DNA from: Candidatus Uhrbacteria bacterium CG_4_9_14_3_um_filter_41_35
GTDB lineage: Bacteria; Patescibacteriota; Patescibacteriia; UBA9934
Length of the DNA: 64,000 nt
Assembly (NCBI GenBank): GCA_002791275.1
Contig: PFWT01000007.1
Location: 26,859 to 90,858 of the forward strand
Direction of reading: 5' to 3'
Position 1 is the stretch's first letter; each line of letters starts with the position of its first letter. Made by a program: the position numbers and the translations under genes. The notes beneath the pieces are model-generated. The model searched no databases. It was given only the letters and a program-made list of their open reading frames with translations, and was not told where the DNA came from. Of the stretch, positions 27,899 to 60,133 are shown piece by piece.

Positions 27899-28900
27899 TC
27901 ACGTTTGGTCGTAAACAACTTCCGACACGAAGTCGGCTTGAATCTCAGGATCTGACGGACGCTTACAGAGTGCAAAAAGCACAATCTGGAGTGCAGACCT
28001 TGTGTCCTGCGCAAGGTCGTAACCGTCATTTCTGACGACTTCCATGAGTGCCGGCGGAGTCGCATACTGTTCAAGCATTGCGCTTACCATCTCGGGTTCG
28101 AGATTCTCGACCCTAACAAGCCGAAAAGCCTCCCGCAACAGCTCAGTTTGGTGGTTGTGTGCTTTTCTGGCGTAGCTAGCTGAGTCTAGACACCTCCAAG
28201 AAAAGACCTCCTCAGACCAAGTAAACAGCTGGGAAATGAAGCCCAGAATCTCCTGACGGCGCCGTTCGCCCGTCTCTTGTTCGAGACTTAGCAGACCATT
28301 TACGGTCCGCAACCGATGACCCGAGTCTTCGACCTTGAGGCGAATAAAACGTTCAACCTCTGCGGTATGACCGTCAATTTCTGCCAAGGCTCCAATCAGC
28401 GCTTTTCCGGAGAAAAACCGTAAGTCTTCCGAGGTTGGCAGTTCCCGACGCTCCAGTTCACTGTCGGACATCACCAGCTTCAGAAACTCAAGGCGTGCAA
28501 GTGTGGAATCGCGGATTGCCTCAGTGAGCGCTTCGACCGGTTTTCTAACCTGATCGAGCTCATACTGAAGATTCTGACAATTCTGCCTCTCCGCATCCAG
28601 TCGTTTCTGAATATGCTCAGTCTCTTTTTGAGCATTGTTCAGCTCCGATTCAAGCCCGTTTGCCTCTTCCGAGAAAAGGCTAACTTGACTGAAAATAACT
28701 TGTAAGAGATGAGTTAGAAACGCGAGACTGAGCAGTCCAAAGAGTGCTGAAGAGCCAAGCAACAGCATGTCGGTCGTCTCAAAAACCCGATGATAGGTAC
28801 TCATTATGAGGCCAGTCGTCGAGATGACCCACATGAACACCAGAACAGACCCCGTCAAGATTTGATTTCTTGAAATAGTTTCAATTTCCCTGTGTTCCAT
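27899..28900 (-). CDS. Hypothetical membrane-anchored coiled-coil protein (elevated GC)
   Basis: Two N-terminal TM helices, ~80-aa coiled coil (ELNNAQKETEHIQKRLDAERQNCQNLQYELDQ), C-terminal globular domain. Local GC is ~50%. Confidence 0.55.
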   Translation of the reverse strand: MEHREIETISRNQILTGSVLVFMWVISTTGLIMSTYHRVFETTDMLLLGSSALFGLLSLAFLTHLLQVIFSQVSLFSEEANGLESELNNAQKETEHIQKRLDAERQNCQNLQYELDQVRKPVEALTEAIRDSTLARLEFLKLVMSDSELERRELPTSEDLRFFSGKALIGALAEIDGHTAEVERFIRLKVEDSGHRLRTVNGLLSLEQETGERRRQEILGFISQLFTWSEEVFSWRCLDSASYARKAHNHQTELLREAFRLVRVENLEPEMVSAMLEQYATPPALMEVVRNDGYDLAQDTRSALQIVLFALCKRPSDPEIQADFVSEVVYDQT

Positions 28901-37942: not shown

Positions 37943-37944
37943 AA

Positions 37945-40971: not shown

Positions 40972-41988
40972 TTATTGAGCAATTGCGGTTACTATAGCTG
41001 CTACAGAACATGTCCCGCTCACACCAGAATTCGGAATCTGAATCCCAAAATAAGCACTATCAGTTGGGGCAGAGTTTTCATTCGTTCTATGTTGCATCCA
41101 ACCAAGGCCAGTTGAAGTTTCAAAATTTAGATCTTGATTTGTCGTTGAAAAAGACGTTGTTAGTAGCTCGTAAATATTGTCATTTGTGCCAAATCTTTGA
41201 TTCGAAACCGGAATATTTGCTGAGCCAGGACCATCACAGGTCATTACAGCTGAGCTTGCTTGGATAGTCATATCAGCATCACTATTTCCATAAAGAGTAC
41301 CTAGCACAGAAATACCAGCCTGAGTTGCACCAAGTGACATCTGACCATAACTAATTGTTGACGAACCAAAGTTCATGGATAGAACTATATTTTTTGTAAA
41401 TGATGATGTAGCTGTTCCGGTTAAGGCAGTTGAGTCGTAAGCAATACCACTTAATTCCCAGTACGAAGGCGGGTAATCATTTGAGTCCATCCAGTATTCA
41501 AGGAGTGCACTACACTTATACCAAGCTGAAGTAGCGCCTTCTGTAAAATCTAGAGTGCAGGCAGAAATTCCACCCGTAGTTTGACCATCATAATTTGAAT
41601 AACAGTAATTACCGTCCTTTTCAGCAGCTGTATCACAATCAACAAGCGTTTTAGTATTTGGAATAACAGTATGATGAAACATCGCAACCCTCGCTTCTGC
41701 GATATCACCGTTACCGTTTAAATCCGAAATTTTCATGAACACATCAACCGGTGTTTGTGTGTTGGCGGAGCCGGTTACACCATTCAAACCTGTATACGGA
41801 TTACAGGAAGTCGCCCCTCCACTTGGACAGAGCTTTATCACGTCTATTGTTGGCGAAACCTGAGTGATCTGAACTGATGTTGTCTCCGTTTGTGAACGCG
41901 TTAGAACCAATGCAATAATAACAAACAAACCGATAAGCATTAATAAGCCTCCTGATATCCAATTAACTAAGTTATTGTCTTTTGTCAT
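40972..41988 (-). CDS. Paralog 1 of a tandem family: N-terminally anchored, Cys-containing secreted ~338-aa protein
   Basis: N-term MTKDNNLVNWISGGLLMLIGLFVIIALVL-TRSQTE. Conserved blocks VLSMNFGSSTISYGQMSLGATQAG, DGNYCY, AWYKC..EYWMD, C-terminus GVSGTCSVAAIVTAIAQ. Confidence 0.6.
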   Translation of the reverse strand: MTKDNNLVNWISGGLLMLIGLFVIIALVLTRSQTETTSVQITQVSPTIDVIKLCPSGGATSCNPYTGLNGVTGSANTQTPVDVFMKISDLNGNGDIAEARVAMFHHTVIPNTKTLVDCDTAAEKDGNYCYSNYDGQTTGGISACTLDFTEGATSAWYKCSALLEYWMDSNDYPPSYWELSGIAYDSTALTGTATSSFTKNIVLSMNFGSSTISYGQMSLGATQAGISVLGTLYGNSDADMTIQASSAVMTCDGPGSANIPVSNQRFGTNDNIYELLTTSFSTTNQDLNFETSTGLGWMQHRTNENSAPTDSAYFGIQIPNSGVSGTCSVAAIVTAIAQ

Positions 41989-42000
41989 ATATATTTAATA

Positions 42001-43011
42001 TTATTGAGCTACAGTTAAAATCGTTGCCGTTACTGAACAGGTTCCGCTTACGCCAGTACTTGGAATTTGAATACCGAAATAAACTGAGTCGGCTGGGTTG
42101 GTCGTTTCACTGGTTCGTGCAATTAATTTATTATCATTTGGATTATTTTCGAAATCCAAATCTTGAGCAGACGTCGAAAGTGCGCTCGCTAAAAGTTCGT
42201 AAGTATTATTATCTGTACCGAATCTTTGATTTAAAACTGGAATGTTTGCCGAACCCGGACCATTACAGCTCATTACGGCTGAGTTTGACTGAATTGTCAT
42301 ATCGGCATCGCTATTTCCGTAAAGAGTTCCGAGCACAGCAACACCCGCCTGCGTTGCGCCGAGCGACATTTGACCATAACTAATTGTTGATGAGCCGAAG
42401 TTCATTGACAGGACCGAGGTGTTTTCAAAAGTCGAACCTGTAATCAGAGAAGTTGATGTGGCAGTATCATAAATAACAGCGTCGATATTCCATGTTTGAC
42501 TTGAGTACTTTGAAAGTGGATCGGTTGCATCCATCCACGACTGTAAAGTTACACGACAACGCCACCAAGCTGAAGTAATACCTTCGGCTGAGTCAAAAAC
42601 ACAAGCATCTACCCCGCCCAATGTTTGATTATAAACATTGTTATAGCAATAATTTCCATCAACATTATTTGAACCCGCACAAGCGGCTGGACCGCCTATG
42701 CCAGACCGATACAGTGTTGTTTCAACTTTCGAAATATCACCATAGCCGTTTGGATCCGTAACTTTTACAAGCACATCCATTGCCTTGGGTGCGTTAGCAT
42801 TCCCAAGATAATCCGATATCTGCGGACACGATGTAGCAAGGCCAGTGTCACACAATTTAACAGAGGCCAAAGTAGGAGCCTGCTGACTAACCGAAACGGA
42901 AGTAGTCTCAGTTTGCGATTTTACCACCGCCAGCGCAATGATAATCAGTACTGCAATCACGATTAGCAGTGCACCAACAAACCAACTTAGAAATTCACTA
43001 TTTTTTTTCAT
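42001..43011 (-). CDS. Paralog 2 of the tandem anchored secreted-protein family
   Basis: Same blocks, including AWWRCRVTLQSWMDATD; ends GVSGTCSVTATILTVAQ. Confidence 0.6.
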   Translation of the reverse strand: MKKNSEFLSWFVGALLIVIAVLIIIALAVVKSQTETTSVSVSQQAPTLASVKLCDTGLATSCPQISDYLGNANAPKAMDVLVKVTDPNGYGDISKVETTLYRSGIGGPAACAGSNNVDGNYCYNNVYNQTLGGVDACVFDSAEGITSAWWRCRVTLQSWMDATDPLSKYSSQTWNIDAVIYDTATSTSLITGSTFENTSVLSMNFGSSTISYGQMSLGATQAGVAVLGTLYGNSDADMTIQSNSAVMSCNGPGSANIPVLNQRFGTDNNTYELLASALSTSAQDLDFENNPNDNKLIARTSETTNPADSVYFGIQIPSTGVSGTCSVTATILTVAQ

Positions 43012-43018
43012 ATAATAA

Positions 43019-44038
43019 TTATTGAGCTACGGATAAAATTGTGGCAGTTACTGAGCAGTTTCCGCCAACACCTTCACTGGGTATTTTAATACCAAAGTAA
43101 ACGTAATCAGACGGATTTGTGGTTTCGCTAGTTCTTGCGATTAACTTGTTGTCGTTTGCATCACTTTCAAAATCTAGATCCTGTGGTGCTGTAGAAAGCG
43201 CGCTAGCCAAAAGTTCGTATGCAACATCGTTAGTGCCAAAACGTTGATTTTCAACCGGAATAAAACCTGAGCCTTGGCCATCACAAGTCATCAGTGAGGC
43301 ATTCGCCTGAATTGTCATATCGGCATCTGTGTTACCATATAAAGTTCCAAGCACCGCCACCCCTGCGCTTGTGGCGTTTAGCGGAAGCTGACCGTAATTA
43401 ATGGTCGATGAACCAAAGTTTATGGAGAGTACAGAAGCATTTTCAAAAGTTGCCATTTTCCAAATACTATTCAGGGCCGAATCCTGAGCCCAAGCCTGGA
43501 TTTGCCAATTTTCCGTTGGGTATTTTGACTGATCATCCGTGGCGTCCATCCATGGTTCGAACGTTACAGTACATTTCCACCAGGCTGCAGATGCAGTGTC
43601 GCTCGAATCAAATACGCACTGAGAGATACCTGCATTGTTGCCAAAATTGATATTATTATAGCAATAATTACCGTCCTTATTACCGTTCACTGAAGCATTC
43701 ATACATTGCGCCAGTGGAATTGCGCTTCTATGAACTGAAATGCGAAGACTTGCAATGTCATTATAACTATTTCCGTCTGTAATTTTTGCCCAAACATCAG
43801 CCTGCGTTTGTGTATTTGGACTGCCCACAAAAGTTGAGAGTGCCGTGCAGTTAGTACCAGCCACATCGTTAGCTGGACACAATTTTACAAGATTAAGTAT
43901 AGGTCTTGACTGGGCCACAACTACCGTCGATGTATCTGCTTGCGATTGTAGTAAAGCAAACGAAAGAATGACAAGTAGTCCTATCAGAACTAATGTCCCC
44001 GCGACAACCCAAGAGGTATCTTTCGTTTTTAAAAGCAT
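43019..44038 (-). CDS. Paralog 3 of the tandem anchored secreted-protein family
   Basis: Same blocks, including AWWKCTVTFEPWMDATD; ends GVGGNCSVTATILSVAQ. Confidence 0.6.
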   Translation of the reverse strand: MLLKTKDTSWVVAGTLVLIGLLVILSFALLQSQADTSTVVVAQSRPILNLVKLCPANDVAGTNCTALSTFVGSPNTQTQADVWAKITDGNSYNDIASLRISVHRSAIPLAQCMNASVNGNKDGNYCYNNINFGNNAGISQCVFDSSDTASAAWWKCTVTFEPWMDATDDQSKYPTENWQIQAWAQDSALNSIWKMATFENASVLSINFGSSTINYGQLPLNATSAGVAVLGTLYGNTDADMTIQANASLMTCDGQGSGFIPVENQRFGTNDVAYELLASALSTAPQDLDFESDANDNKLIARTSETTNPSDYVYFGIKIPSEGVGGNCSVTATILSVAQ

Positions 44039-44042
44039 ACAA

Positions 44043-45062
44043 TTACTGCGCGACCGAAAGAATGGTTGCTGTTACCGAGCAAGTTCCACTAACACCCGAA
44101 TTTGGAATTTGGATACCAAAGAAGACAGAATCAGTTGGGTTAGCAGTTTCACTAGTTCGAGCCAATAATTTATTACCGTTCGCCGAGGTTTCAAAATCTA
44201 GATCTTGCGCAAAAGTAGTGAGTGAACTTGCAAGGAGCTCATAAACAACGTCATCTGTGCTGAATTTTTGATTACCAACTGAAATACTAGACGAGCCAGG
44301 ACCATCACAAGCCATGGAGTTTACGTTAGCCTGAATTGTCATATCAGCGTCGCTGTTTCCATACAGCGTGCCAAGGACTGCCACCCCAGCCTTGGTTGCT
44401 CCGAGCGACATCTGACCATAACTAATTGTTGTTGAACCAAAATTCATTGAAAGGACTGAGGTATTTTCGAAAGTAGCAAGTTTCCAATTATTATTTGAAA
44501 CCGAGTCTTGGGCCCATGACTGAATCATCCAGTTTTCTGCCGAATATTTTGAAAGGGCGTCTGTTGCATCCATCCATGGTTCAAAGGTGATCGTACATTT
44601 CCACCAGGCAGTCGTAGCACTCACACTTGAAACAACAGTGCAGGCAGTGATACCAGCGTCGTTACCGAAGCTCATATTGTTATAACAAAAATTGCCGTCT
44701 TTGTGACCGTTCACCGATGCGTTCATACAACTGGCCAACGGAATTCCACTTCTGTGAACCGATGTAGTGAGTCTGGTCACATCTCCGTAACCATTGAGAT
44801 CAGTAACGTTAAGCCAAATGTCTGCCTGCGTTTGCGCGTTCGGACTACCTAAAAAATTAGCGATGCCTAAACAATCAACTCCAGCAGGATCGTTAAACGC
44901 ACAGAGCTTCACAGAATTAATTGCTGGTGCGACCTGACTAACCTGAACCGAGGCGATTTCTGCTTGTGATTTTGTTAGAACTATTGCACTAATGATAAAT
45001 AAACCAATAAGAAGTAGCGCACCCCCTAGCACCCAATTCATTAGACTATTTTCTTGCGTCAT
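44043..45062 (-). CDS. Paralog 4 of the tandem anchored secreted-protein family
   Basis: Same blocks; ends GVSGTCSVTATILSVAQ. Confidence 0.6.
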   Translation of the reverse strand: MTQENSLMNWVLGGALLLIGLFIISAIVLTKSQAEIASVQVSQVAPAINSVKLCAFNDPAGVDCLGIANFLGSPNAQTQADIWLNVTDLNGYGDVTRLTTSVHRSGIPLASCMNASVNGHKDGNFCYNNMSFGNDAGITACTVVSSVSATTAWWKCTITFEPWMDATDALSKYSAENWMIQSWAQDSVSNNNWKLATFENTSVLSMNFGSTTISYGQMSLGATKAGVAVLGTLYGNSDADMTIQANVNSMACDGPGSSSISVGNQKFSTDDVVYELLASSLTTFAQDLDFETSANGNKLLARTSETANPTDSVFFGIQIPNSGVSGTCSVTATILSVAQ

Positions 45063-45208
45063 AATACTTTTTTTAACTCAAATATTTAATCTAATTATAG
45101 CAAACTATTTTATTAATTTCTTTTCTTATTAACAGATAAATAAATTTTCGAGTCAAACTTAAAGCCACCCATTAATGGATGGCTTTAAACTTTTTTTCCT
45201 CCGTTATA

Positions 45209-45415
45209 CTATCTAATGTCTACTTTTGTTGAAAGAGTTTCAGTTGGAATAAATACTGACATTTCAACTTCGGATGATCCGGCTTCTTCTGTTCTAACAG
45301 GTGCAGGAGACGGTGCAACGATTACACTGTTCTGACCTGATGCAAGAGAGATCACCAACCAAGCAGTCAATAAAGTAACAACAACGGCAAGGATTGACAG
45401 AATATTGTTATTCAT
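45209..45415 (-). CDS. Small hypothetical membrane protein (68 aa)
   Basis: Single TM helix. Lies between paralogs 4 and 5. Confidence 0.3.
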   Translation of the reverse strand: MNNNILSILAVVVTLLTAWLVISLASGQNSVIVAPSPAPVRTEEAGSSEVEMSVFIPTETLSTKVDIR

Positions 45416-45436
45416 AAATCTCGCGTTAAATGTTAT

Positions 45437-46468
45437 TTAGTGATTAATTGCTGCCAAAGTTGCTGCTACAGTACATGTTCCACTAACTCCAGATGCAGGA
45501 ATACCGATTCCAAAAAATACAGTATCTGATGGAGCAACAGTTTCACTTGTTCGAGCCAACAGCTCATTATCATTAACATTAACCTCAAAGTCAAGATCCT
45601 GTGGTGAGTTTGAAAGTGCACTTGCAAGTGCTTCGTAAGCACTATCGCTTGTTCCAAATCTCTGATTAGCAACTGGGATATTTGCGCTACCTACTCCGTC
45701 ACAAGTCATAACTGCTGAGTTAGCTGCGATTGTCATATCTACGTCTGAGTTTCCCTGAGCTGTTCCCAAAACTGAGACACCAGCTTTAGTTGCACCAAGA
45801 GACATTGGACCATAGCTAATTGTTGATGATCCGAAGTTCATCGAAAGAACTGTGTTATTTCTGAATGTTGAAGGATTTACTGAGATACCAGTGTTGCTTT
45901 GCGAGTCAACAACTATCGCATCCATAGCCCAGTTTTCTGCTGCAAAGTTTGATGAAGGGTCGGTTGCATCCATCCAGTACTGAAGTGTTACATCACACTT
46001 CCACCAAGCTGATGTTGTACTTACAATATCATTTTGAGCACATGAAAGAATTCCTCCTGAAGTTTGTCCATCGTAGTTTGAGTAACAGCTGTTTCCGTCA
46101 TACTCAGATCCAGCACCAATCGAACCGGTGTTACAAGCCGCTAGTCCAACTGAGCTTCGATAAAGTGATCCACCAACTGAAGCGATATCACCGTAACCGT
46201 TAGCATCCGAAACCTGAACAAACAAATCCATCTCTGTTGATGTAGTGTTTGCACCGGTAAACTCTGACACACCAACACATGAGCCTACTGCTACTGCTTC
46301 GTTGATACAAAGTTTTACTGCATCAACTGTTGGTGTAGCCTGAGTAATCTGAACGGTTGTTGTTTCTGTTTGAGATCTAGTTAGCACCAAAGCGATGATA
46401 ACAAAGAGCCCGATGAGGAGCAATGCGCCTCCAAGCACCCAGTGGGTGGCATTGTTTTCTTGAGCCAT
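45437..46468 (-). CDS. Paralog 5 of the tandem anchored secreted-protein family
   Basis: Same N-terminal anchor (HWVLGGALLLIGLFVIIALVL-TRSQTE) and blocks; ends GVSGTCTVAATLAAINH. Confidence 0.6.
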   Translation of the reverse strand: MAQENNATHWVLGGALLLIGLFVIIALVLTRSQTETTTVQITQATPTVDAVKLCINEAVAVGSCVGVSEFTGANTTSTEMDLFVQVSDANGYGDIASVGGSLYRSSVGLAACNTGSIGAGSEYDGNSCYSNYDGQTSGGILSCAQNDIVSTTSAWWKCDVTLQYWMDATDPSSNFAAENWAMDAIVVDSQSNTGISVNPSTFRNNTVLSMNFGSSTISYGPMSLGATKAGVSVLGTAQGNSDVDMTIAANSAVMTCDGVGSANIPVANQRFGTSDSAYEALASALSNSPQDLDFEVNVNDNELLARTSETVAPSDTVFFGIGIPASGVSGTCTVAATLAAINH

Positions 46469-46679: not shown

Positions 46680-48413
46680 TTATAGGTGTTTGAACTGGTG
46701 TTTGAACTGGTGTTTGAACTGGTGTTTGAACTGGTGTTTGAACTGGTGTTTGAACTGGTGTTTGAACTGGTGTTTGAACTGGTTTTGAACTGGTGTTTGA
46801 ACTGGTGTTGTTACTTGTGGTATCTGAGGTTGTAGAGGAGATGGAGATGCTGGTATTTGTGTAGTTCCAAAAGAGGCAGAACCTAAAGGATTAGCTTCAA
46901 CCGTCACACCTTCGGACTGAGCACTCGTGCGGTCTTTGTCGCTAATTGTTCCATCTTGGTTTGAGTCAATTGTTACCGTTGCCGTAATCCAAGTGCCCAC
47001 AGTTAAAGTGTTTGATGCTGGCACAAACTGCCAGGCTACACCCTCCAGTTTTGTGGTTCCGATGATCACTTTGTTGGCGTAAATATTTATCACCGATCCA
47101 ACCTTCCCTGAACAAGTACCTGTAATAACTGGGCTGTTACTAAATATCGGTGAGTTAACCACCGGTGGTTCCACTTGTTTTCTTTTCCTAAAGAAGAACC
47201 AGAGAATACCAAAAGCGAGCAACACTATTAGTGAAATTAGTAGTGTCCAAATATACCCCCATTTATCGGCAGGCAGTACCTCGGCAACCGCAAGCGATTT
47301 AGCTGTAACGTTAACATTCAAATTTTGTGTATTTGAAACTTTATTTCCAAACTCTACATAACCCACCATTTTGTAATCACCTTCATTTGAAAATTCAGTG
47401 AAAGAACGAAAAGTTGTGATCTCGTCTCTACCAACAGAAAAAGATTTTCCTACCAAGGTATCTAGAAGTTGATCGTCGGCTGAATAAATTTCGATTATCA
47501 TTCGGCTAAGAACCGGGATGGTTCCAGTATTTCTAAAAGTTCCAAGCATCACCACCTGTTCGTTTGGTGCGTAACTGTCCTTTGAAGCCGAGAACGAAGA
47601 AAGCTCACCACTTTGTTTTAAAGTTCCGGGTGAAAAAACTTGTAGATCTTCTGTGGTTGCAAAAACCACTTCTCCGCCAACCAAGAATTTAATCTCACCT
47701 TTATACTGACCAGCTGGTAGTTTTGATTCAAAGTCTACTAACTCTGACCTGGTCTCCCCCGGTCGCCAAGGTCCGATTTTTTTACCATCAAACGTTTCGG
47801 TTGTAATTAAATTTCCGCTACCTGCGTCAAAAAAACTAACCGTTATTTCGTCCGGTCGCCACTCCGTATTTCCATTATTCACCACCTGAAAACCTAAAAT
47901 AATAGACAGAAGCTCTTCAGTCTGTGGGAAGTTTACATTTGTAATATCAAAGTCAATTACCTGCTTATCTGAAACTGAAAAGTCGAGCATTAGCTGCACA
48001 CCACGTCGCAAAATCGTTCCAGCTCCTTTATCCACCCCACCCTCACCAGTTTGTGGTAAAAATAACACTTTTGCATTATAACTTCCGATCGCTGCCTCTT
48101 TTGGTAAAATTGAAAACTGGTACGGAACAATTGTTACACCTTGTGGAAAAGTAATCATGTCTGGTCCCTCAAGAAATCGGGCATCTTGACCTTGAAATTC
48201 AACCGCAAAAGTTTCCGCAGTTGGTCCTTCGTTACGCAAAATATTTACAGTTACCACCTGACCATATTCCCGAGTAATATCGTTTACAACAACAGACGGT
48301 GGTGAAATTCCCAGAGTTGCGAAAGCGAAATTTGGCGCCAGGAATAAAAAAGCTCCCAAAAGCATTGTGCATAACCTGAAAAAATTTCTAAATTTTAATT
48401 TTTCCCCCAACAT
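46680..48413 (-). CDS. Secreted family-B protein: signal peptide + GISPPSV motif + C-terminal TM + Ig-like tail + repeat C-terminus
   Basis: Signal peptide MLLGAFLFLAPNFAFA|TLGISPPSV. TM WGYIWTLLISLIVLLAFGILWFFF then basic RKRK. C-terminal ~110-aa beta-rich domain, then a (TPVQ)n/(FKHQ)n repeat tail. Confidence 0.6.
   Translation of the reverse strand: MLGEKLKFRNFFRLCTMLLGAFLFLAPNFAFATLGISPPSVVVNDITREYGQVVTVNILRNEGPTAETFAVEFQGQDARFLEGPDMITFPQGVTIVPYQFSILPKEAAIGSYNAKVLFLPQTGEGGVDKGAGTILRRGVQLMLDFSVSDKQVIDFDITNVNFPQTEELLSIILGFQVVNNGNTEWRPDEITVSFFDAGSGNLITTETFDGKKIGPWRPGETRSELVDFESKLPAGQYKGEIKFLVGGEVVFATTEDLQVFSPGTLKQSGELSSFSASKDSYAPNEQVVMLGTFRNTGTIPVLSRMIIEIYSADDQLLDTLVGKSFSVGRDEITTFRSFTEFSNEGDYKMVGYVEFGNKVSNTQNLNVNVTAKSLAVAEVLPADKWGYIWTLLISLIVLLAFGILWFFFRKRKQVEPPVVNSPIFSNSPVITGTCSGKVGSVINIYANKVIIGTTKLEGVAWQFVPASNTLTVGTWITATVTIDSNQDGTISDKDRTSAQSEGVTVEANPLGSASFGTTQIPASPSPLQPQIPQVTTPVQTPVQNQFKHQFKHQFKHQFKHQFKHQFKHQFKHQFKHL
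46685..46803 (-). repeat. 12-nt tandem repeat (ggtgtttgaact, ~10 units) with one 11-nt unit
   Basis: Eight perfect units, then ggttttgaact (11 nt), then one more unit. Reverse-complement frames encode VQTP or FKHQ. Confidence 0.75.
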
Positions 48414-48659
48414 AATCTTATAAATTTTTATCAGTATTAATTTTATCTGATTTTGTGTCGTTTTCGTTTTTGCAAATTTCACAATTTTGTTTGCGACTTT
48501 TCTGTTCAGAAACAAACGCAAAAACCAAAGTTGCTACAAAAAACCCTACAAAAAAACCTTGTATCAAAGTTGAACTTATCATAACACCAATCTCTATTCT
48601 CATTAACTTTTGGACAGCTTGCAGTCCTAAAATAATGTTTTCCATGATATTATTATACC

Positions 48660-51424: not shown

Positions 51425-52780
51425 TTACTGCGTTTTCCAGTAGAGCATCATCGCATGACGCTCCTTCGAGTCCCACGACAGCCTTGGCCACCAAAGTGGA
51501 CAAAGGTAGTCAAAGAGTTGCGCAGCTTGGTAGGTGCTATGTCGATCACCACCAGTTGAGGTTTGAGTTGAGAGGTATTCGCGAGCGGTGGTCACGATTT
51601 GCTCAACTCGACTGGCAATTATTCGATTGTCGTACTCAATCTGCCTGGTAAACCGCCCGATTGTCTTAGTGTCCCAATAGTCCCTGTGACTATTCTTGTT
51701 AACGCCACCGGGATCAGGGATTTTTTCGAGCGGTCCGGTCCAAATACGCTTATGCGTGTACTCACTGAAAAACTCGGCATCGGACTTTGTGGCTGCTCGT
51801 CTAGTTCCGGTGCGTCCAACAACCGAAACAACGATGTACATCCAGCCACCACGATCCGCCACAGCCTTCTTTGACGAACCTTGAACGCAGTAACGCTCCT
51901 TCTTTTCCACGGCACGTTCCAGACTCTTGTCTCGACTAACGTGCCGAATTTCCCAGATCTCGTCGTCGATCTCGACAGTTCGCAGTTCCCACAGCTCTTT
52001 TTCTTCATGAACTGTTAGACCCTGAAGACGCATCTCATGAGCTTTTCTTTTGTCTTCAGGAATACCTGAACCAGCTTCAACTAATTCACGTTCGAGTTGC
52101 TCGGCAGACTCCTTGATCGACTGTCGAAGATCAAGCGCGGCTCGATGTGCTTCCGCCTTTGATTCAAAAAACAGTGGTTGTCCAAGCGCTCGGCTTGAGT
52201 TTGCAGGGTTGGTTTCAATCACGATCCAGAGCTTCACAAACTGGCCAGTAAACATTTTACGTAGCGCAATTTCTTCGATTTGCGAGAGATTCTCAGCAAC
52301 ATCCGCCTCTGACTCAACTACATCCCAAGAAAGTAGCTGGAGCGCAAACACAAACGATCGTTGCGCCTCTTCTCTAGTCCTAATGTCCTGCTCGGACAAT
52401 TCCGGACTATCCGGAACTGTTGCCATTTTGAACAAGCGAATTGGCTCAAGAGCAACCTGTACTGGTCCAAAAGAATCAAGCGCTGAAAAACGTTGCTTGA
52501 GCGGACCTGTAATTAGGCTATTGAAGTACTTTCGTGACTGATCGATCTTTCGTTGCAGGTCCTTGTAAAACTCGTTCGCACCCATCGCGGCAACTAACGA
52601 TTCTTCCCCGCGATACTCCCGATTCACTTGGCAAAACGCCATAAACAGTGCGACCTTCTTACAGGTTGCTCGCTTCTCAAGTGTCATTTCATAGAGCTCC
52701 CGCATCCTCATTACAAGGGGCACGAACTCTGTAAAACTAATGAAATGCTCTTCTTTATCCGGATAAAAGTAACCCGTCAT
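51425..52780 (-). CDS. Hypothetical protein (451 aa), elevated GC
   Basis: Long ORF at ~52% GC in a ~40% GC background. No assignable motif. Confidence 0.55.
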   Translation of the reverse strand: MTGYFYPDKEEHFISFTEFVPLVMRMRELYEMTLEKRATCKKVALFMAFCQVNREYRGEESLVAAMGANEFYKDLQRKIDQSRKYFNSLITGPLKQRFSALDSFGPVQVALEPIRLFKMATVPDSPELSEQDIRTREEAQRSFVFALQLLSWDVVESEADVAENLSQIEEIALRKMFTGQFVKLWIVIETNPANSSRALGQPLFFESKAEAHRAALDLRQSIKESAEQLERELVEAGSGIPEDKRKAHEMRLQGLTVHEEKELWELRTVEIDDEIWEIRHVSRDKSLERAVEKKERYCVQGSSKKAVADRGGWMYIVVSVVGRTGTRRAATKSDAEFFSEYTHKRIWTGPLEKIPDPGGVNKNSHRDYWDTKTIGRFTRQIEYDNRIIASRVEQIVTTAREYLSTQTSTGGDRHSTYQAAQLFDYLCPLWWPRLSWDSKERHAMMLYWKTQ

Positions 52781-52919: not shown

Positions 52920-53873
52920 CTATATCGCCGTTATAATCCCGCCGCTTGTACAGGTACCTGAAATACCAGTGTTTGGCACCAAAATCGACCAGTAAATTTC
53001 ATCAAACGACCTGTTCTTAGTTGTTCTTTGTGGCAAATTCACTGCCCGATATTTCACAGCTTCAATATTTAACGCATCCGAAGTTTCACTTTTCTCCATT
53101 TCGTTGTACGTTCCAGACGTCACATCAATCCTTTGTGCTGAAACCGGAATTATTCCCCGGTCACAAACCATATCTTCAAAACGAACTTGCAAATCAGCGT
53201 CTACATTACCTATATTTTCGATAATAGCTGGCTCGGTAGCTGTACGTGATTCACCTGGATAAAGCTCACCGTAATCAATAACTTCAGGTAATGCCAGTTG
53301 AAGCAGTGTTTCCACCTCGTTAACATAGCTTCCATGCACCACTTGATCGTTGATTGTGTTTTGAAGCGCTATCTTCATCTGCCAATTTTGATCTACGTAT
53401 TTTGAACGACTGCCAACAGTTGCATCCATCCAGTACTCAAACCTTACCTTACAAAGTAAGGTACCACCCAGCGCTGATTGTGGCGTAAAGTAACAATCAT
53501 TATTTTCCGTTGAAAGCCGATAACAATTTTGCGGATCCGAAGTGCAGTTTTCGCCAGTCTCGAGTCCTGAGCGGTAAAAAACAATATCAGTTTCCCCAAT
53601 CTCTCCCACACCATTTAAATCTTCAAGGTCAGCAATTATATAGTAAGTTGTCGTAGTGCCACCAGTCAAAGTTATTGAGTTCACATTTCCGTCTTCTTTG
53701 AGACCAGTACGGTTAATGGCTATTGTTTTAACTTGAGAGGGATGATCGCGAATAATGATAATGGCGGAAGTTGCATTAGTTTTTAAAAATGGTAGCAGTA
53801 GCAAAAAACTAAAAATCAAAATCACGAGTGAAATTATTATTGGTAACCTGTAGCGCTCTATAAAATTTTGCAT
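52920..53873 (-). CDS. Divergent sixth member of the anchored Cys-containing secreted family
   Basis: N-terminal TM (LPIIISLVILIFSFLLLLPF). Shares CKVRFEYWMDAT and the C-terminal GISGTCTSGGIITAI with paralogs 1-5. Confidence 0.5.
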   Translation of the reverse strand: MQNFIERYRLPIIISLVILIFSFLLLLPFLKTNATSAIIIIRDHPSQVKTIAINRTGLKEDGNVNSITLTGGTTTTYYIIADLEDLNGVGEIGETDIVFYRSGLETGENCTSDPQNCYRLSTENNDCYFTPQSALGGTLLCKVRFEYWMDATVGSRSKYVDQNWQMKIALQNTINDQVVHGSYVNEVETLLQLALPEVIDYGELYPGESRTATEPAIIENIGNVDADLQVRFEDMVCDRGIIPVSAQRIDVTSGTYNEMEKSETSDALNIEAVKYRAVNLPQRTTKNRSFDEIYWSILVPNTGISGTCTSGGIITAI

Positions 53874-53878
53874 ATACT

Positions 53879-55363
53879 TTACACGGTAACTATCACAATG
53901 TTCGAGTAGTCACTTTGTTTATCTTTTAAATTAACCACTCCGTCGTGGTTTGCGTCAACCCGAACACTAGCAATGACCTGCGCGCCGATTGAAAGTGTAT
54001 TCGCTGGCACGTTAATTGCCCAAATTCCGTGCCCCACCATTGTTAAACCGAGTGAAACACCGTTTACTATAACTTCAATTAAAGCCCCATCTTTTTCGAT
54101 TGAAGTCCCGGTAATCTGCGGTGAAGTTATTCTGATTGGTGTATTTATCTTTGGTGGCTTCGTGTACACCGCCTTTTTATGTACCGCTACAAACAGTCCT
54201 ATGAACATGAGCAACAAAGCAGACAAAATAATCAGCAAATAATTTATAGTTTTTTCTATTATAGGGCTCGCAATTGCAAGATCTGAAGTTTTGGTTTCAG
54301 AAGTTCTGTTACCATATTCAACATAAGATAAAATCCGAAATTCACCTTGGTCGGTCATTGGGAGTATCTGATTAAATGTAACTGTCTCCCCTATCGAAAC
54401 TTTGATTGGTTCTGTTTTTAAAATATCAACAATCGACTCACCATCATAAACCTCGGTCACCATATTGGCAAAATAACTGGTTTCGCCGTTATTAGTGAAA
54501 ATTGCGTTAAACTGTACTAGCTCACCAGACGTATAACTTGTTTTGTCAAAAATAACCGAACTCAAAACCCCAGATTGTTTTAATACTCCCGTACCATAAA
54601 TTTCGAAATTGCTTGTTGTTGTATCCGTCTTGTCTTTATATTGAAAGTCAACAACCAGTGTATACTCACCACGATTCAAGGTTGAAAAGAGGTCGATTAT
54701 GTGAGTGTGAGTTTCGCCAGGTTCGGTAAATTCGAGATCTGACCCCGAGACAATTTTTTCTTCAATTAACCTACCTCTATTATTAAAAAGTGAAGCCGTT
54801 ATAAAATCTGGCTTCCAGTTCAGGTTTCCGTTATTTTTGATTGTATAGTTAATAAACAATGGTAAACCCTCCTCCGTTTGGATTGGTGTCATTTTTATTA
54901 CCTCGTAGTCGAGCTTTTCAGTATTTGAAACAGTAAAATGTATCTGCAAAGTAACACCACCTAAAACATTTACCGCACCTAAATGGGCATTGTTCTGATT
55001 TGCAGGCTGTATTCCTATAAAGTCTATTTCAGCAGAATAATCACCGTTTGTAAGTGAACTGGCTATAATTTGAAATTTATATACCAGCTGGCTTTCGCCC
55101 GCTTCAAAAGATATTTGCTCTGCACCTTTTATAAAAGACTTGGCATCACCTCTAAATTCAACCTTAACCGCCGACGCTTTTGAAACATCACCACTGCGCG
55201 TTAAAATTACTTGGTCGTTGTGTGGGACGTCATTTAAGATATCGTGACTTATAATTTCTGCTGGTGACACCCCTATTCCTGCAAAAGCAAAACTAGGCGC
55301 ACAAACAATTAGTGACGATAATAATATAATTACGTAAAAAAATATTCCCCCTTTATTTCTCAT
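53879..55363 (-). CDS. Secreted family-B paralog (494 aa)
   Basis: Signal peptide ...CAPSFAFA|GIGVSPAEI; TM INYLLIILSALLLMFIGLFVAV + HKK. C-terminal Ig-like tail homologous to the 46680 protein (ITSPQITGT.. / VITGTCSGKVG..). Confidence 0.6.
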   Translation of the reverse strand: MRNKGGIFFYVIILLSSLIVCAPSFAFAGIGVSPAEIISHDILNDVPHNDQVILTRSGDVSKASAVKVEFRGDAKSFIKGAEQISFEAGESQLVYKFQIIASSLTNGDYSAEIDFIGIQPANQNNAHLGAVNVLGGVTLQIHFTVSNTEKLDYEVIKMTPIQTEEGLPLFINYTIKNNGNLNWKPDFITASLFNNRGRLIEEKIVSGSDLEFTEPGETHTHIIDLFSTLNRGEYTLVVDFQYKDKTDTTTSNFEIYGTGVLKQSGVLSSVIFDKTSYTSGELVQFNAIFTNNGETSYFANMVTEVYDGESIVDILKTEPIKVSIGETVTFNQILPMTDQGEFRILSYVEYGNRTSETKTSDLAIASPIIEKTINYLLIILSALLLMFIGLFVAVHKKAVYTKPPKINTPIRITSPQITGTSIEKDGALIEVIVNGVSLGLTMVGHGIWAINVPANTLSIGAQVIASVRVDANHDGVVNLKDKQSDYSNIVIVTV

Positions 55364-55584
55364 AACTAAAATTATTATAACCTTTTAGCTATAAAGGCGA
55401 AAGCTTGATTGTTTTAACAAAACAATCTCCGCAAATAGATAGCTATTCTGTCTAAAATTTAACTTCGGAACTAGAGTATTAACAGTTGCAGATTTTTCTA
55501 GCTAAATAAGTTTGTACCAAAAACAAATATTAGAAATAAATGAGGGTGTTAAAACACCCTCGAGAAACTTTTTACGTTTTTGCC

Positions 55585-56778
55585 TTACCACGCTGGACAG
55601 TGATAAGCCCGCTGAACGCTGTTGTAGTCCGTGGGACCGTTACCGTTCACGTCGTAGTAAAGGAACTGTTGAACACTACAGTCACGAGCCGGCGTTCGCT
55701 TCGAGATGTCGGCGTAGGTGTGGATGTAGCCAAAGACAGCGCTGTTTGGCTGAACGAAGTGACGCCAGTACTCCGGCGCAAAGCCACTTTGCGGGTTGGG
55801 ACCCACGTAAGCAAAGCCGTTCACCCACACGGTTTCGTCATCCTTCGCCGGAAATACTTGGCAGTATTCCGGCGCCATTGACGAGTTCGTGTTGATGTAC
55901 TGGTTGATCACCTCCCGCCCCTCCTGATAGAAGGGGTAGCTCTGCACCGCCATCGACTGACTGATCGCGTAGAGCTTGACGGCCGTGAGCGTCGAGGCGT
56001 AGTTCTGCATATCCATACAGATCAGAATCCGGTTATCCTCCGTGAGACTGGATGGATCCGTGGGCTCGTTCAGAACCAAATCCGTCCCCGGATCTTCGAC
56101 CTCGGGTGGCGGACCCTGCTCCCAGACCGGGAGCAGGGAACCGTAAACGTTGCCCTCCACCAATCCGCAGACCATATTTTCGGTCGACAAAGTCTTCTGA
56201 AGACCAGCGTTCACATCCTGCGCACGGATCGAAAGCCCCTCCACACTGGTACCATAAGTACCGTCCCTCGAGGCATCGCCACGGTGACGGCCGATGTGCA
56301 CGTGATCGCCAGTCGAGGAACCTGTGGTACCTTCGATACCAATCAGGTCCCCCATATCGATCCATCGGCCGTCCTCGGTGTCCGCGCGCTTCAGATGCGC
56401 CAGAATGATGTAGGTACCATCGCCGAGGTCAATGTTCACGTGAATTCCGAACCCGCTATCGAGATCGGTGTGAACGTACGCCGTACCGGAAATCGGCGCG
56501 TACACGCTGAGATCCATATCGTTTGGCGTATCAAGATCCACGTCGTGCATAGTGGAGTCGTAGTGGTGCGAATAGCTACCAAACGGCCCCTGCACGCACT
56601 GCAAGCGAACACCGTGGGCGAAGGGCATATGAACAACAACACTGTCCTGACCACCGAAGTGGTCAGTATCGTAGCTCATAGGCACCACCTCACCAGCCGT
56701 GAACCAACTCGGCGTACAGCCGTGTTGCAAAGACAGGATCAGCAAAAGAACAGACACACGAAACAACTTGGTAAGCAT
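55585..56778 (-). CDS. Secreted M23 (LytM-type) metallopeptidase, high-GC, likely horizontally acquired
   Basis: Signal peptide MLTKLFRVSVLLLILSLQHGC. M23 motifs HxxxD (HHYDSTMHDVD) and ILAHL...GDLIGIEGTTGSSTGDHVHIG. GC ~58% against ~40% in flanking genes. Confidence 0.75.
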   Translation of the reverse strand: MLTKLFRVSVLLLILSLQHGCTPSWFTAGEVVPMSYDTDHFGGQDSVVVHMPFAHGVRLQCVQGPFGSYSHHYDSTMHDVDLDTPNDMDLSVYAPISGTAYVHTDLDSGFGIHVNIDLGDGTYIILAHLKRADTEDGRWIDMGDLIGIEGTTGSSTGDHVHIGRHRGDASRDGTYGTSVEGLSIRAQDVNAGLQKTLSTENMVCGLVEGNVYGSLLPVWEQGPPPEVEDPGTDLVLNEPTDPSSLTEDNRILICMDMQNYASTLTAVKLYAISQSMAVQSYPFYQEGREVINQYINTNSSMAPEYCQVFPAKDDETVWVNGFAYVGPNPQSGFAPEYWRHFVQPNSAVFGYIHTYADISKRTPARDCSVQQFLYYDVNGNGPTDYNSVQRAYHCPAW

Positions 56779-56835
56779 TGTTGCTTCCTTATTGTAATTT
56801 TTGGACGAGATGCAAAGCAGTAATTTGCTAAACAA

Positions 56836-57100
56836 CCTCTTACAGTGTGGGAGTCGTAAATTGTAAGCACTATAAGAGGTTGTTAAGGGGTAGAACAGGT
56901 CGGAAAATAACTCCCCATGTATACTTTCCGACCCACCAAATAGAAACCAGTTCTGCGTAAGTCAGGCGTCTCACTAAACTCATGCCCTTGTTACGGAAGT
57001 CCCAGAAATCTTTTTTTTTGGAAGCCCTTGAATCCGTCTCAGGATTCGGTTGCTGTTACGTCCTAAATATATATTCCAATTATTAAAGGCCTGGGTCAAT
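56836..57100 (-). promoter_or_regulatory. Structured 5' leader of the M23 peptidase gene (candidate riboswitch/ncRNA)
   Basis: Several strong inverted repeats: aacaacctctta..taagaggttgtt (12 bp), ggtcggaaa..tttccgacc, gaatccgtctcaggattc. No ORF. Confidence 0.3.
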
Positions 57101-57778
57101 GAAATCAATCTCTACTTTACGTCAGCTATCATCAACACTTTTGTAAAAGAAAAAAATTTTGTGTTCAGTAGCAAATTACAAAAAAAATTTATTCTTCAAA
57201 TTATTAAGGATTAACCTAAATAATATAACGCAAGCACTTAACAAAATTTATCTTTTAACAAAAAATGAGTTGATACTCATCAACAACTTCTGTTAACAAG
57301 TCCTAAATGTAATTTTAAACTTTACAAATAAATGAACTTAATAACCTTAAAATTAGCAGAAAATCAGAATCTTAAATATTTAGCATAAACAAAAAAACGA
57401 ACAGTGTTCGCTTTTTCTGACCCCAGGTGCGGGTTGTAATTGGTCCTCTGCCACATATGGGCAAACCAGCAATACCTAGCGAGCGTGTAAGACAGTGCCT
57501 AGACGCCGAGCAGTATTTAGGAGAGGCCGCTGGATCCCCGCACGTACACCCTATTTAGGTGGACAGCTAGTCTACGTTAACTCGTCGATGCCTTAGCCCT
57601 TTGCGAAAACACGGATCCTTACAAATTGTAATTGGCCAATTACATATTCCACAACCTGAAGTACCTGTATTATGTCACAATCTACCTTTTCCTCCAAATA
57701 ATTATAAAAACCTCAGCATAATTTAGTAAACAAATAACCAACCAGCAAAACTGGTTGGTTATATAATCATTTGTTAAC

Positions 57779-59203: not shown

Positions 59204-60133
59204 ATGGATTCCGAAAACTCGGCTATATGCCCCACTTACCGCCTCTATCAGACCAACCCCTACAACATCGGTACGCTAGTTAATAACGTCTTAGCCGAAC
59301 ATGCTCGGCTTCAGGAGCTCTTCGGAAGAGTACTTCAAACGCCCTCTGTGTATATTCCAGGTCGATTGAAAGGCGTACCTGGCAAGAAGATTCTGCATGC
59401 TTTTACCGAGGTTGGGATTTATGCCCAGGATCTACCGGTCTCGAGCGTGCGGGCTTCGATCATGAACCTAGCCGCAAAAGACATCGCGACCAGGTTTGGG
59501 AGTGAAGCAGTCGTGTTCTTCTTGAACCCGCGCGCCAGTGCTGAACGTCTCGATAACGATGCTGTTCAGCAGGTACTGTCCGCTCTCCGCACCCCCGGTG
59601 TGCATGAAGTTGGAGTCTGGGCTGGTCAAAACCCGCAACACGCCTATGTTGGTGCTGGTTTTGTAGACGCTGGCACCGCATTATATCGCGCTTCGAATCT
59701 GCTCGACCGCCCCTTCGACCCCATCACCGACGACCCCGAGTCTGGCGCGCCAAGCTGGCAAGTCCGTGATCTTGTGTCGAAGGAGTCTTACAACCTCTGC
59801 GGGGCTGAAGACGCACTTCGGAAGTCCGTTTTCCGAAGTCTTGCCATCGTCAGCACGGCTGGCAAGCTTTATGGCAACGACATTATGAGTGGCGGGAACG
59901 ATACCCTCCACTGGTTCAAGCTCACCAGGGCCTGGCTCCTATGGCTCGCGAGCTTCGAGCAAGAACCTGTCGGGCTCTGGCTAAACGAGATTAGTCTTGA
60001 AGCGCGGACGGACAGTTTTAATCACTTCGTCAGAGATCACCTCCGAGGTGTTCACCCTAAGTGGCAAGACGAAGCTGAAAAGGTTGCGCGCGCTATACAG
60101 CTTCTCAACTACGAGGTTTATCTCAAGGCTTAG
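59204..60133 (+). CDS. Hypothetical protein (309 aa), high-GC, likely horizontally acquired
   Basis: ~55% GC ORF directly after a terminator, with its own RBS (aggagga N7 ATG). No assignable motif. Confidence 0.5.
   Translation: MDSENSAICPTYRLYQTNPYNIGTLVNNVLAEHARLQELFGRVLQTPSVYIPGRLKGVPGKKILHAFTEVGIYAQDLPVSSVRASIMNLAAKDIATRFGSEAVVFFLNPRASAERLDNDAVQQVLSALRTPGVHEVGVWAGQNPQHAYVGAGFVDAGTALYRASNLLDRPFDPITDDPESGAPSWQVRDLVSKESYNLCGAEDALRKSVFRSLAIVSTAGKLYGNDIMSGGNDTLHWFKLTRAWLLWLASFEQEPVGLWLNEISLEARTDSFNHFVRDHLRGVHPKWQDEAEKVARAIQLLNYEVYLKA

Follow-up and report, generated by a model that had tools for sequence, protein, structure and literature searches.

A GC-rich M23 peptidase gene of Candidatus Uhrbacteria belongs to a lineage-native family with a persistent GC3 offset and a structured leader RNA

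Must a gene whose composition stands out from that of its surroundings be foreign? The question is raised by a 64-kb stretch of a Candidatus Uhrbacteria genome (the window hereafter means the whole 64,000 nucleotides analysed), in which a gene at 55585..56778 on the reverse strand, encoding a predicted M23-type cell-wall peptidase, is far richer in GC than the genes around it. An original prediction, made from the sequence alone, had read this as the trace of horizontal transfer from a high-GC donor in another phylum, such as the Actinobacteria. Our analysis points elsewhere. On the evidence of its homologues and their gene order, the M23 family is native to Candidatus Uhrbacteria and their Patescibacteria relatives, and its GC-richness is a persistent, gene-bounded family trait and not evidence of foreign origin. 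Taken as a whole, we consider it probable that the window gene encodes a native uhrbacterial M23 lipoprotein, a solitary short form of a family linked to a type IV secretion system (T4SS), which carries both the family-wide GC offset and a structured leader RNA.

The compositional contrast is real. The window has a GC content of 41.0%, with a GC content at third codon positions (GC3) of 0.34, whereas the mechanically called open reading frame (ORF) at 55585..56835(-) has a GC content of 0.551 (GC1 0.56, GC2 0.41, GC3 0.676) and ranks first in GC3 among the 66 long ORFs of the window (z = 4.9; the other 65 have a mean of 0.34 and a standard deviation (sd) of 0.07). In 200-nt windows, GC lies between 0.55 and 0.605 at 55600-56700, at 0.27-0.33 in the downstream spacer and at 0.22-0.32 at 57000-57400. 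The earlier description of a GC3-biased gene in surroundings of about 40% GC is therefore borne out, and its figure of ~58% GC fits the core of the gene while being slightly high for the ORF as a whole. The true coding sequence (CDS) is shorter than the mechanical ORF and runs from 55585 to 56778(-), encoding 397 aa plus a stop codon: ATG 56778 is the start used by gene callers on 24 contigs, by NCBI, by UniProt and by all homologues, and the exact protein is present in databases as PIQ67538.1/PJA46868.1, under the name ‘M23ase beta-sheet core domain-containing protein’. The remaining segment, 56779..56835(-), is a spurious, non-coding N-terminal extension, whose TTG at 56835 falls within the second of two conserved RNA hairpins described below. 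Within the true CDS, GC3 reaches 0.69, A occupies only 5% of third positions (a third-position A frequency, A3, of 0.053 vs 0.31 in the background), and the codons AAA, GCA, ATA, CTA, TTA and AGA are not used at all. An intrinsic-terminator-like hairpin follows at 55542..55561(-), 24 nt past the stop codon.

To place this gene phylogenetically, we turned to its homologues. The guess that the genome belongs to the candidate phyla radiation proved right, with EF-Tu, EF-G and L2 all exact matches to Candidatus Uhrbacteria metagenome-assembled genomes (MAGs) from Crystal Geyser (CG_4_10_14_0_2_um_filter_41_7 and CG_4_9_14_3_um_filter_41_35; NCBI lineage Patescibacteria group; Parcubacteria group; Ca. 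Uhriibacteriota). A homologue search of 5.8 billion proteins with the M23 protein yielded 98 matches at E values from 1e-253 to 1e-35, the next match lying at 1e-4, and all lineage-named homologues among the 98 are assigned to Uhrbacteria or ‘Patescibacteria group’. A scan of GTDB, using one genome per species for 185,579 species, returned 88 loci, 80 of which were kept; these are titled Uhrbacteria, Patescibacteria or Parcubacteria, or bear generic or odd titles (‘uncultured Gammaproteobacteria’ and one ‘Kapaibacterium’). No actinobacterial relative of comparable similarity was found among the 5.8 billion proteins or the 185,579 GTDB species, and the M23 protein had zero tblastn matches in records of phages (50,697) and plasmids (72,556). 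Since the oddly titled loci share the gene order of the named Uhrbacteria, the Gammaproteobacteria and Kapaibacterium titles appear to be wrong or to be placeholders. The title ‘uncultured Gammaproteobacteria bacterium’ is borne by third-party-annotation (TPA) co-assembly MAGs (loci L008-L011, L014-L016, L035, L075 and others) and ‘Candidatus Kapaibacterium sp.’ by L027; OZ246408.1, a 1.0-Mb ‘chromosome’ under a Gammaproteobacteria title, likewise has an Uhrbacteria-type M23/T4SS gene order.

These searches bear directly on the idea that the gene was recently acquired from a GC-rich member of another phylum, such as an actinobacterial host, and has retained the donor composition. The sharp, gene-sized shape of the GC island and the position of the window gene outside the usual operon of the family are what such an event might leave behind, but no homologue from outside the Patescibacteria lies between E 1e-253 and 1e-35, all 80 species-representative loci belong to the Uhrbacteria/Patescibacteria family, phage and plasmid matches are lacking, and the same GC excess recurs in syntenic, co-inherited orthologues at 74 of 78 loci. 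The homology comparison that the original prediction had proposed, looking for nesting among Actinobacteria, returned relatives from the same lineage. We regard an inter-phylum origin as very improbable.

The genomic setting of the family is consistent across loci. In about 60 of the 80, the M23 gene stands first in the order M23-c2-c0-c0-c3-c5-c6-c12 (c numbers denote families of neighbouring genes), where c2 is a ~960-aa polytopic membrane protein, the two c0 products are proteins of ~420 aa, c5 is a 650-aa TraG/VirB4 P-loop ATPase and c6 is a protein of ~185 aa. Two further members gave weak, sub-threshold matches: c3 (~230 aa) to TraC_F_IV (E 0.007), and c12 to Pribosyltran and zinc-ribbon models, consistent with ComF. 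SerRS is often encoded just upstream of M23, with a giant Cys-rich protein farther upstream. Judged by this gene content, the M23 family usually heads a chromosomal type IV secretion-like operon. The arrangement agrees with the published T4SS of Patescibacteria, which is chromosomal, relaxase-less and MPF-FATA-like (named for its mating-pair-formation class), with comF linkage in class ABY1; Peptidase_M23 domains occur among Patescibacteria VirB1-like proteins, and epibiotic growth of Ca. Southlakia epibionticum requires a peptidase encoded next to virB4 (PMC12102498). The family resembles both the peptidase/lysozyme genes that adjoin virB4 in Ca. Southlakia epibionticum and the wall hydrolases of monoderm conjugative T4SS (PrgK of pCF10, TraG of pIP501 and CwlT of ICEBs1; cited in PMC12102498) in lying within a VirB4-containing, MPF-FATA-like cluster of a monoderm cell. 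Unlike PrgK, TraG and CwlT, its members lack a lytic transglycosylase or CHAP domain and the gene leads the operon, while the window copy lies apart from all T4SS genes. The job of the enzyme would be local cleavage of peptidoglycan cross-links that lets the T4SS-like envelope machine assemble or act or, alternatively, cleavage of the wall at the site of contact with a host. In many loci (L003, L004, L006, L009, L010, L013, L022, L030 and others), IS200-like Y1 (or REP-associated tyrosine transposase-like) genes of families c8 and c11 adjoin M23.

With this set of loci, we were able to ask whether the composition of the window gene is peculiar to it. Across the 80 GTDB loci, the GC content of the homologue exceeds that of its ~20-kb flanks by 0.097 on average. 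Measured as a difference in GC3 from the ORF-level background (delta GC3), the excess has a mean of +0.21; 74 of the 78 loci show a positive value (Wilcoxon p 5e-14) and 59 a value greater than 0.15, and in 54 of 71 loci the M23 gene ranks first or second in GC3 among the local ORFs. All codon positions are shifted (GC1 by ~+0.05, GC2 by ~+0.06 and GC3 by +0.21), and at third positions of the family A3 is 0.096 against 0.209 in the background, while the frequency of C is 0.40 against 0.23. The excess is spread evenly along the CDS (+0.18 in the signal, +0.21 in the M23 domain and +0.19 to +0.22 in later parts), is gone within 150 nt downstream and is not shared by the neighbours, for which delta GC3 is -0.016 in c2 (62 loci), -0.002 in c0, +0.014 in c3, +0.023 in the VirB4-like c5 and +0.006 in SerRS.

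Over the 78 loci, the GC3 of the M23 gene follows that of its background as GC3(M23) = 0.95 x GC3(background) + 0.23 (r 0.67). An offset that tracks host GC with a slope of ~1 is just the reverse of what a fixed donor signature would show as it ameliorates. In being a gene-sized block of deviant GC and codon usage, the M23 gene looks like the compositional ‘genomic islands’ on which calls of horizontal gene transfer are based; unlike such islands, its syntenic orthologues share the offset in 74 of 78 genomes and track host GC. High GC that a family shares in its native syntenic position in other Uhrbacteria is uninformative on foreign origin. Descent was examined in the same way: pairwise distances for M23 go together with the distances for VirB4, c3 and c2 at rho 0.63-0.70, against 0.74-0.77 between the control genes themselves, and nearest-neighbour agreement is 28/44 for M23 and 31/44 for a control gene. 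By these comparisons, the family has descended largely vertically, together with its operon. Since a donor signature or a common gene pool predicts a slope below 1 and discordant trees, the constant offset and co-inheritance together identify the high GC as a family trait. We found no report of this pattern in the literature, and the family-wide, gene-bounded GC3 excess is new as far as our literature searches show.

What might hold the offset in place? We tentatively favour selection on the coding sequence or mRNA itself, which would act through the choice of codons, with those ending in A strongly avoided, and through high stability of the mRNA, and we consider a regional mutational process or serial transfer less likely as causes. 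The ribosomal-protein genes of the window have a third-position bias opposite to that of the M23 gene, which speaks against an ordinary codon bias linked to expression. Serial transfer from a common GC-rich pool was rejected on account of the slope of ~1, with no regression to the mean, and of the congruent phylogeny.

A second possible cause is GC-biased gene conversion, with the M23 gene acting as a recombination hot spot whose GC is raised in every lineage. That all three codon positions are shifted is as expected if there were a pressure towards GC in general; the protein lies at the surface and evolves fast (mean distance 0.50, vs 0.27 for VirB4), and other extreme-GC3 ORFs nearby encode fast-evolving small lipoproteins. 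Regional conversion is disfavoured by the sharp gene boundaries: the excess ends at the borders of the gene, and the -0.016 of the adjacent operon gene in 62 loci is hard to square with conversion tracts. The phylogenetic congruence of M23 with its neighbours also nearly equals that of the controls, and the third-position shift is asymmetric, A being far more depleted than T. On balance, we think this explanation decidedly unlikely.

The original prediction had also noted spurious ORFs of more than 100 aa over the gene, and these are indeed present, at 127, 113, 118 and 179 aa on the forward strand and 110 aa in another reverse-strand frame; we read them as artefacts of composition. Could the depletion of A-ending codons instead serve to keep open a genuine overlapping gene on the opposite strand? 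In favour of this, the window has antisense ORFs of up to 179 aa, 11-12 relatives also have long ones (cluster c9, median 339 aa), and hardly any TTA, CTA or TCA codons are used. Nevertheless, every A-ending codon is avoided (AAA 0/6, GCA 0/22, GGA 2/36, ACA 2/28), and not just the three that would create antisense stops, which leads us to reject the idea as scarcely credible; in the window the antisense frame is moreover split into several pieces, and antisense ORFs are an expected by-product of high GC3.

The M23 gene is not alone in its composition. Among the other ORFs of the loci compared that have delta GC3 >0.2, lipobox-type N-termini occur in 17/58, against 9/857 (odds ratio 39). Because most of these lipoproteins are fast-evolving, small and acidic and lie at one syntenic position, they may amount to one more independent family. 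Across L006-L085, genes for acidic lipoproteins of 200-290 aa, fast-evolving, recur between the giant c4 gene and M23 (examples are L009:7560-8240, L075:5832-6467 and L070:4241-4942), with GC3 values of 0.8-0.94, up to +0.54 over background and beyond that of the M23 gene.

The second conserved feature of the window gene lies upstream of it. The gene is preceded by a 5′ untranslated leader of ~300 nt (56779..57075(-)), which was delimited by alignment with the related locus L003 and by RNAalifold and which includes a Shine-Dalgarno (SD) sequence, AAGGAAG, at ~56786-56792. Over some 330 nt before the gene, identity with the corresponding stretch of L003 is ~80%, the alignment extending to ~57130, so that the leader is more conserved than the protein, which is 64% identical between the two. 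Conservation is highest, at ~90%, in a two-hairpin core (56824..56940(-)), found by covariance models, the stems of which carry compensatory changes; for the full leader, RNAalifold with both sequences yields 65 pairs, 8 of them compensatory. The apical loop of hairpin 1 reads GGGGAG(U), and hairpin 2 has CUC/GAGG at the base of its stem and a loop, GA(C/U)UCCC, complementary to loop 1. A promoter-like site, TTGATT-18-AATAAT (57079..57108(-)), was picked out by a consensus scan at the 5′ edge of the conserved leader, its -35-like TTGA being kept in L003, and is a putative promoter.

A covariance model built from the window and L003 leaders, followed by two rounds of rebuilding, gave in the last round 23 matches at E <= 0.011 over the two strands of 1.36 Mb of sequence. 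Of these, 22 lie on the strand of an M23 gene and end 15-80 nt before its start, so that at least 22 loci have the leader immediately before an M23 gene; 6 of the 7 matches first found in the last round are placed in this way. In the model-based alignment, 91.8% of cells are paired, as compared with 55% after shuffling and 43-48% when partners are slid. Both sides vary in 30 of the 31 pairs, with a covariation score of 0.80 vs 0.22. These values are to be read in the knowledge that the alignment was fitted to the model. For that reason each sequence was also folded alone, and the single-sequence folds give the same two long hairpins, while a sequence-only alignment with RNAalifold recovered the loop-loop pairing and not the covarying stems. 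The leader is a conserved, covarying structured RNA that keeps its place in front of a single gene family.

Searches against Rfam 15 left the window without a match, whether at gathering score or at E<=1, and 7 related loci without one at gathering score, and a known RNA family for the 1-kb spacer was rejected, the lone match being a chance fit of a miRNA model to the hairpin. No description of this leader RNA was found in the literature, and as far as these searches show the two-hairpin leader is new. The closest known leaders we take to be those of wall hydrolases (the ydaO/c-di-AMP riboswitch and the NLPC_P60 motif in Rfam) and SD-sequestering switches. In common with the ydaO/NLPC_P60 type, there is here a structured 5′ untranslated region before a peptidoglycan hydrolase gene and, as in SD-sequestering switches, a pyrimidine loop complementary to the SD sequence. 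Unlike the ydaO/NLPC_P60 leaders, it consists of two long hairpins with mutually complementary apical loops and lacks an Rfam 15 match. Expression of M23 is probably controlled post-transcriptionally by this leader. The true, GGAG-type SD lies 25-50 nt downstream, and the CUCCC loop could pair either with the SD mimic GGGGAG or with the real SD, making the leader a putative translational switch.

What kind of protein is under this control? The claim of a signal-peptide-bearing M23 peptidase is upheld by Pfam, AlphaFold2 and Foldseek matches alike. The N terminus (56716..56778(-); MLTKLFRVSVLLLILSLQHGC) reads as a signal peptide with a lipobox-like end, ...LQHG-C21, and AlphaFold2 places a helix at residues 2-18. 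The candidate lipobox, MLTKLFRVSVLLLILSLQHG-C21, differs from the classical L-[AS]-[GA]-C at positions -3 and -2 (Q and H). A signal peptide ending in G-C21, a pair nearly invariant among 99 homologues, suggests that the protein is a lipoprotein anchored in the membrane. The M23 (LytM/LasA-like) metallopeptidase domain (aa ~45-225; 56104..56646(-)) is matched by Pfam Peptidase_M23 PF01551 at 45.9 bits (cut-off 28.7; E 6e-12; aa 108-186 of the 416-aa ORF) and by peptidase models of PHROG and NCBIfam, and is modelled with a predicted local distance difference test (pLDDT) score of 94-98 over aa 45-225. Foldseek comparison with the PDB returned LytM, EnpA, Csd1/2, LasA and lysostaphin as top matches, all at probability 1.0. 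Residues H71, D79/D81/D83, H128 and H159-x-H161 of the domain are invariant in the family; the motifs GDH159VH161 and AH128L are at least 90% conserved in the 99 homologues and align to the LytM/TagE motifs, and in the region of the first zinc motif the invariant H71 and D79/D81/D83 show a LasA-like long spacing, H78 being variable (Y/F/H). A Pfam scan detected no lytic transglycosylase, CHAP or NlpC-P60 domain, M23 being the sole domain found. From domain matches and the structural model together, the gene product is a genuine member of the M23 peptidase family and a predicted zinc endopeptidase of the cell wall. With LytM/lysostaphin and LasA-type M23 endopeptidases (PF01551; PDB 2b13, 4zyb, 6smk, 3it5) it has the fold, the HxH motif and the catalytic His in common, and its domain is close in size (~180 residues) to those of LasA and beta-lytic protease, with 185 aligned columns. 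It is just 15-27% identical to such structures, its first zinc motif is not of the standard type and, unlike these enzymes, it is predicted to be lipoprotein-anchored and carries an unrelated C-terminal module.

That C-terminal part (aa ~226-397; 55588..56103(-)), delimited by pLDDT and profile searches, consists of an acidic, Pro-rich linker and a rare Cys-containing module. The module (aa ~250-397) has no Pfam match and no confident fold (AlphaFold2 pLDDT <45). An exhaustive search of 1.84 billion representatives found it only four times, namely in the L003 fragment, in P0003 (the short-form protein of L004, described below) and in two giant proteins, while a metagenome scan with the module returned the window's own sequence only and a profile search the L003 fragment only. 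The giant proteins, P0138 (2400 aa) and P0139 (1315 aa), are of beta-helix/NosD type with EF-hand-like motifs and contain 6-9 tandem copies of a ~80-aa unit corresponding to aa ~308-385 of the window protein; this hints that the ~80-aa unit is a calcium-dependent binding or adhesion module.

The window copy itself departs from the usual operon arrangement: it is solitary, lying between ndk and a gene for a CARDB-like surface protein. Among its short-form relatives, the frameshifted L003 gene, which is followed by a VirB6-like gene, is 76% identical to it in the M23 domain; P0003 (on L004; 45% identical) heads a T4SS operon beside a Y1 transposase; and P0004 (on L005; 44% identical) has the short form at native GC. 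Two of these three are GC3-rich (0.54 in L003 and 0.66 in L004, on contigs of 0.44-0.47 GC). The L003 gene (L003:1834-3037) is split into ORFs of 275 aa and 121 aa on a contig of 1.96x coverage, a split that probably reflects a frameshift in sequencing and not a pseudogene. The window gene occupies the same place in 24/24 contigs with an identical ndk, of which 2 were seen in full and the other 22 reported as similar places. No meaningful direct repeats or insertion scars flank it, and there is no tRNA or integrase near it. The adjacent CARDB-like protein is without homologues among 5.8 billion proteins beyond itself and one 24% match. With such a neighbour, and with all identical-ndk contigs carrying the gene, the presence/absence comparison that had been proposed does show the gene to be constant but is informative for one population only.

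Several observations weigh against our preferred account of a native, T4SS-linked M23 lipoprotein with a family-wide offset. The short architecture is known from just three other contigs (L003, L004 and L005), and the GC3 excess of the window gene lies in the upper tail of the family (delta GC3 +0.35, 5th of 78, ~1.3 sd above the family mean). No VirB4, TraG, VirB6-like or other T4SS gene occurs in the 64-kb window, so that the tie of the window copy to the T4SS is by homology only. Many of the GTDB titles read ‘uncultured Gammaproteobacteria’, and their mislabelling was judged solely from gene order. In the protein, the canonical HxxxD is not found in its standard spacing (SH71HYDSTMH78D79VD81LD83, with no H-x3-D). 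Finally, the folding energy of the M23 mRNA relative to synonymous-codon shuffles gives z -4.75, where controls give -1.1 +/- 2.0 and EF-Tu -4.3; as control z-scores overlap that of M23, excess mRNA structure was set aside as a non-discriminating candidate cause of the high GC3.

The rare architecture and the upper-tail GC3 would be compatible with an old event inside the lineage, a transfer or duplication in which the short form and its leader moved from the head of another Uhrbacterium's T4SS operon to the ndk locus, possibly as a second copy, with part of the extreme GC3 coming from a somewhat GC-richer donor. In keeping with this, the closest relatives, L003 and L004, head T4SS-like operons beside IS200-like Y1 transposases on contigs somewhat richer in GC, the leader is co-conserved with L003, and the bin COY25 holds both the short form and a long, T4SS-linked form; the delta GC3 rank points the same way. 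A nearest relative of only 64% identity speaks against anything recent, the gene is fixed in 24/24 contigs without insertion scars, its delta GC3 is just 1.3 sd over the family mean, and COY25 may be a mixed bin, given that two cleaner MAGs (PIQ and PJA) are without that long form. We consider an intra-lineage move somewhat unlikely and retain the native, largely vertically inherited gene as the better account.

The M23 gene lies within a large array of surface-protein genes. Six paralogous, membrane-anchored, Thr/Ser-rich proteins of ~320-340 aa, without a Pfam match, are encoded at 40972-46468 and 52920-53873(-), and two related larger proteins at 46680-48521 and 53879-55363(-), the latter with a CARDB match. 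At 35693-40209(-) are two adjacent ~750-aa Wzy_C (O-antigen ligase-like) proteins, one with TPR, followed by an M50 peptidase fragment. Between ndk and the M23 leader, a ~300-nt GC-rich (~0.53) stretch at 57391-57730(-) has a promoter-like TTTACT-18-TATAAT at 57730-57701 and a terminator hairpin at 57417-57391. It contains no convincing ORF, has no Rfam match, folds with z -0.96 and lacks conservation in L003, and may represent either the remnant of a gene or a small RNA specific to the species. The three other ORFs that the original prediction had singled out as hints of repeated acquisition from high-GC donors are also elevated in GC3, less so than M23 (59204..60133(+), 0.59; 27899..28900(-), 0.53; 51425..52780(-), 0.49), with a milder depletion of A3 (0.19). 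They encode cytoplasmic-looking or two-transmembrane hypothetical proteins found in the same Uhrbacteria MAGs, and were given no identity by Pfam, PADLOC, PHROG or NCBIfam; a defence-system or phage identity was rejected for want of a PADLOC, PHROG or NCBIfam match.

A more far-reaching idea, which we offer as doubtful speculation, is that the surface lipoproteins of Uhrbacteria (the T4SS-linked M23 together with the small acidic lipoproteins nearby) are under a dedicated post-transcriptional regime. Selection on mRNA, perhaps to resist A/U-specific RNases or to allow some special decoding, would keep the GC3 of these CDSs ~20 points higher than that of the genome and leave them with hardly any codons ending in A, and M23 would in addition be gated by its kissing-loop leader, in which the SD mimic GGGGAG and the anti-SD CUCCC compete with the real ribosome-binding site. 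If this were true, composition would mark a host-interaction regulon and not foreign DNA.

These findings carry a caution: in reduced genomes such as these, a gene family that is native can stably keep a composition that makes its members stand out as a strong island, and calls of horizontal transfer or of host-to-symbiont gene flow that are based on GC and codon usage can hence be wrong. A GC3 offset that tracks the host genome and is shared with neighbouring lipoprotein genes is, in turn, an unexplained evolutionary pattern. For the biology of the Patescibacteria, the M23 family represents a predicted peptidoglycan-cutting component at the head of a type IV secretion-like operon, a machine that in cultivated relatives is reported to be essential for epibiotic growth (PMC12102498), and its covarying leader RNA provides a concrete handle on the regulation of wall cutting in organisms that are not yet culturable.

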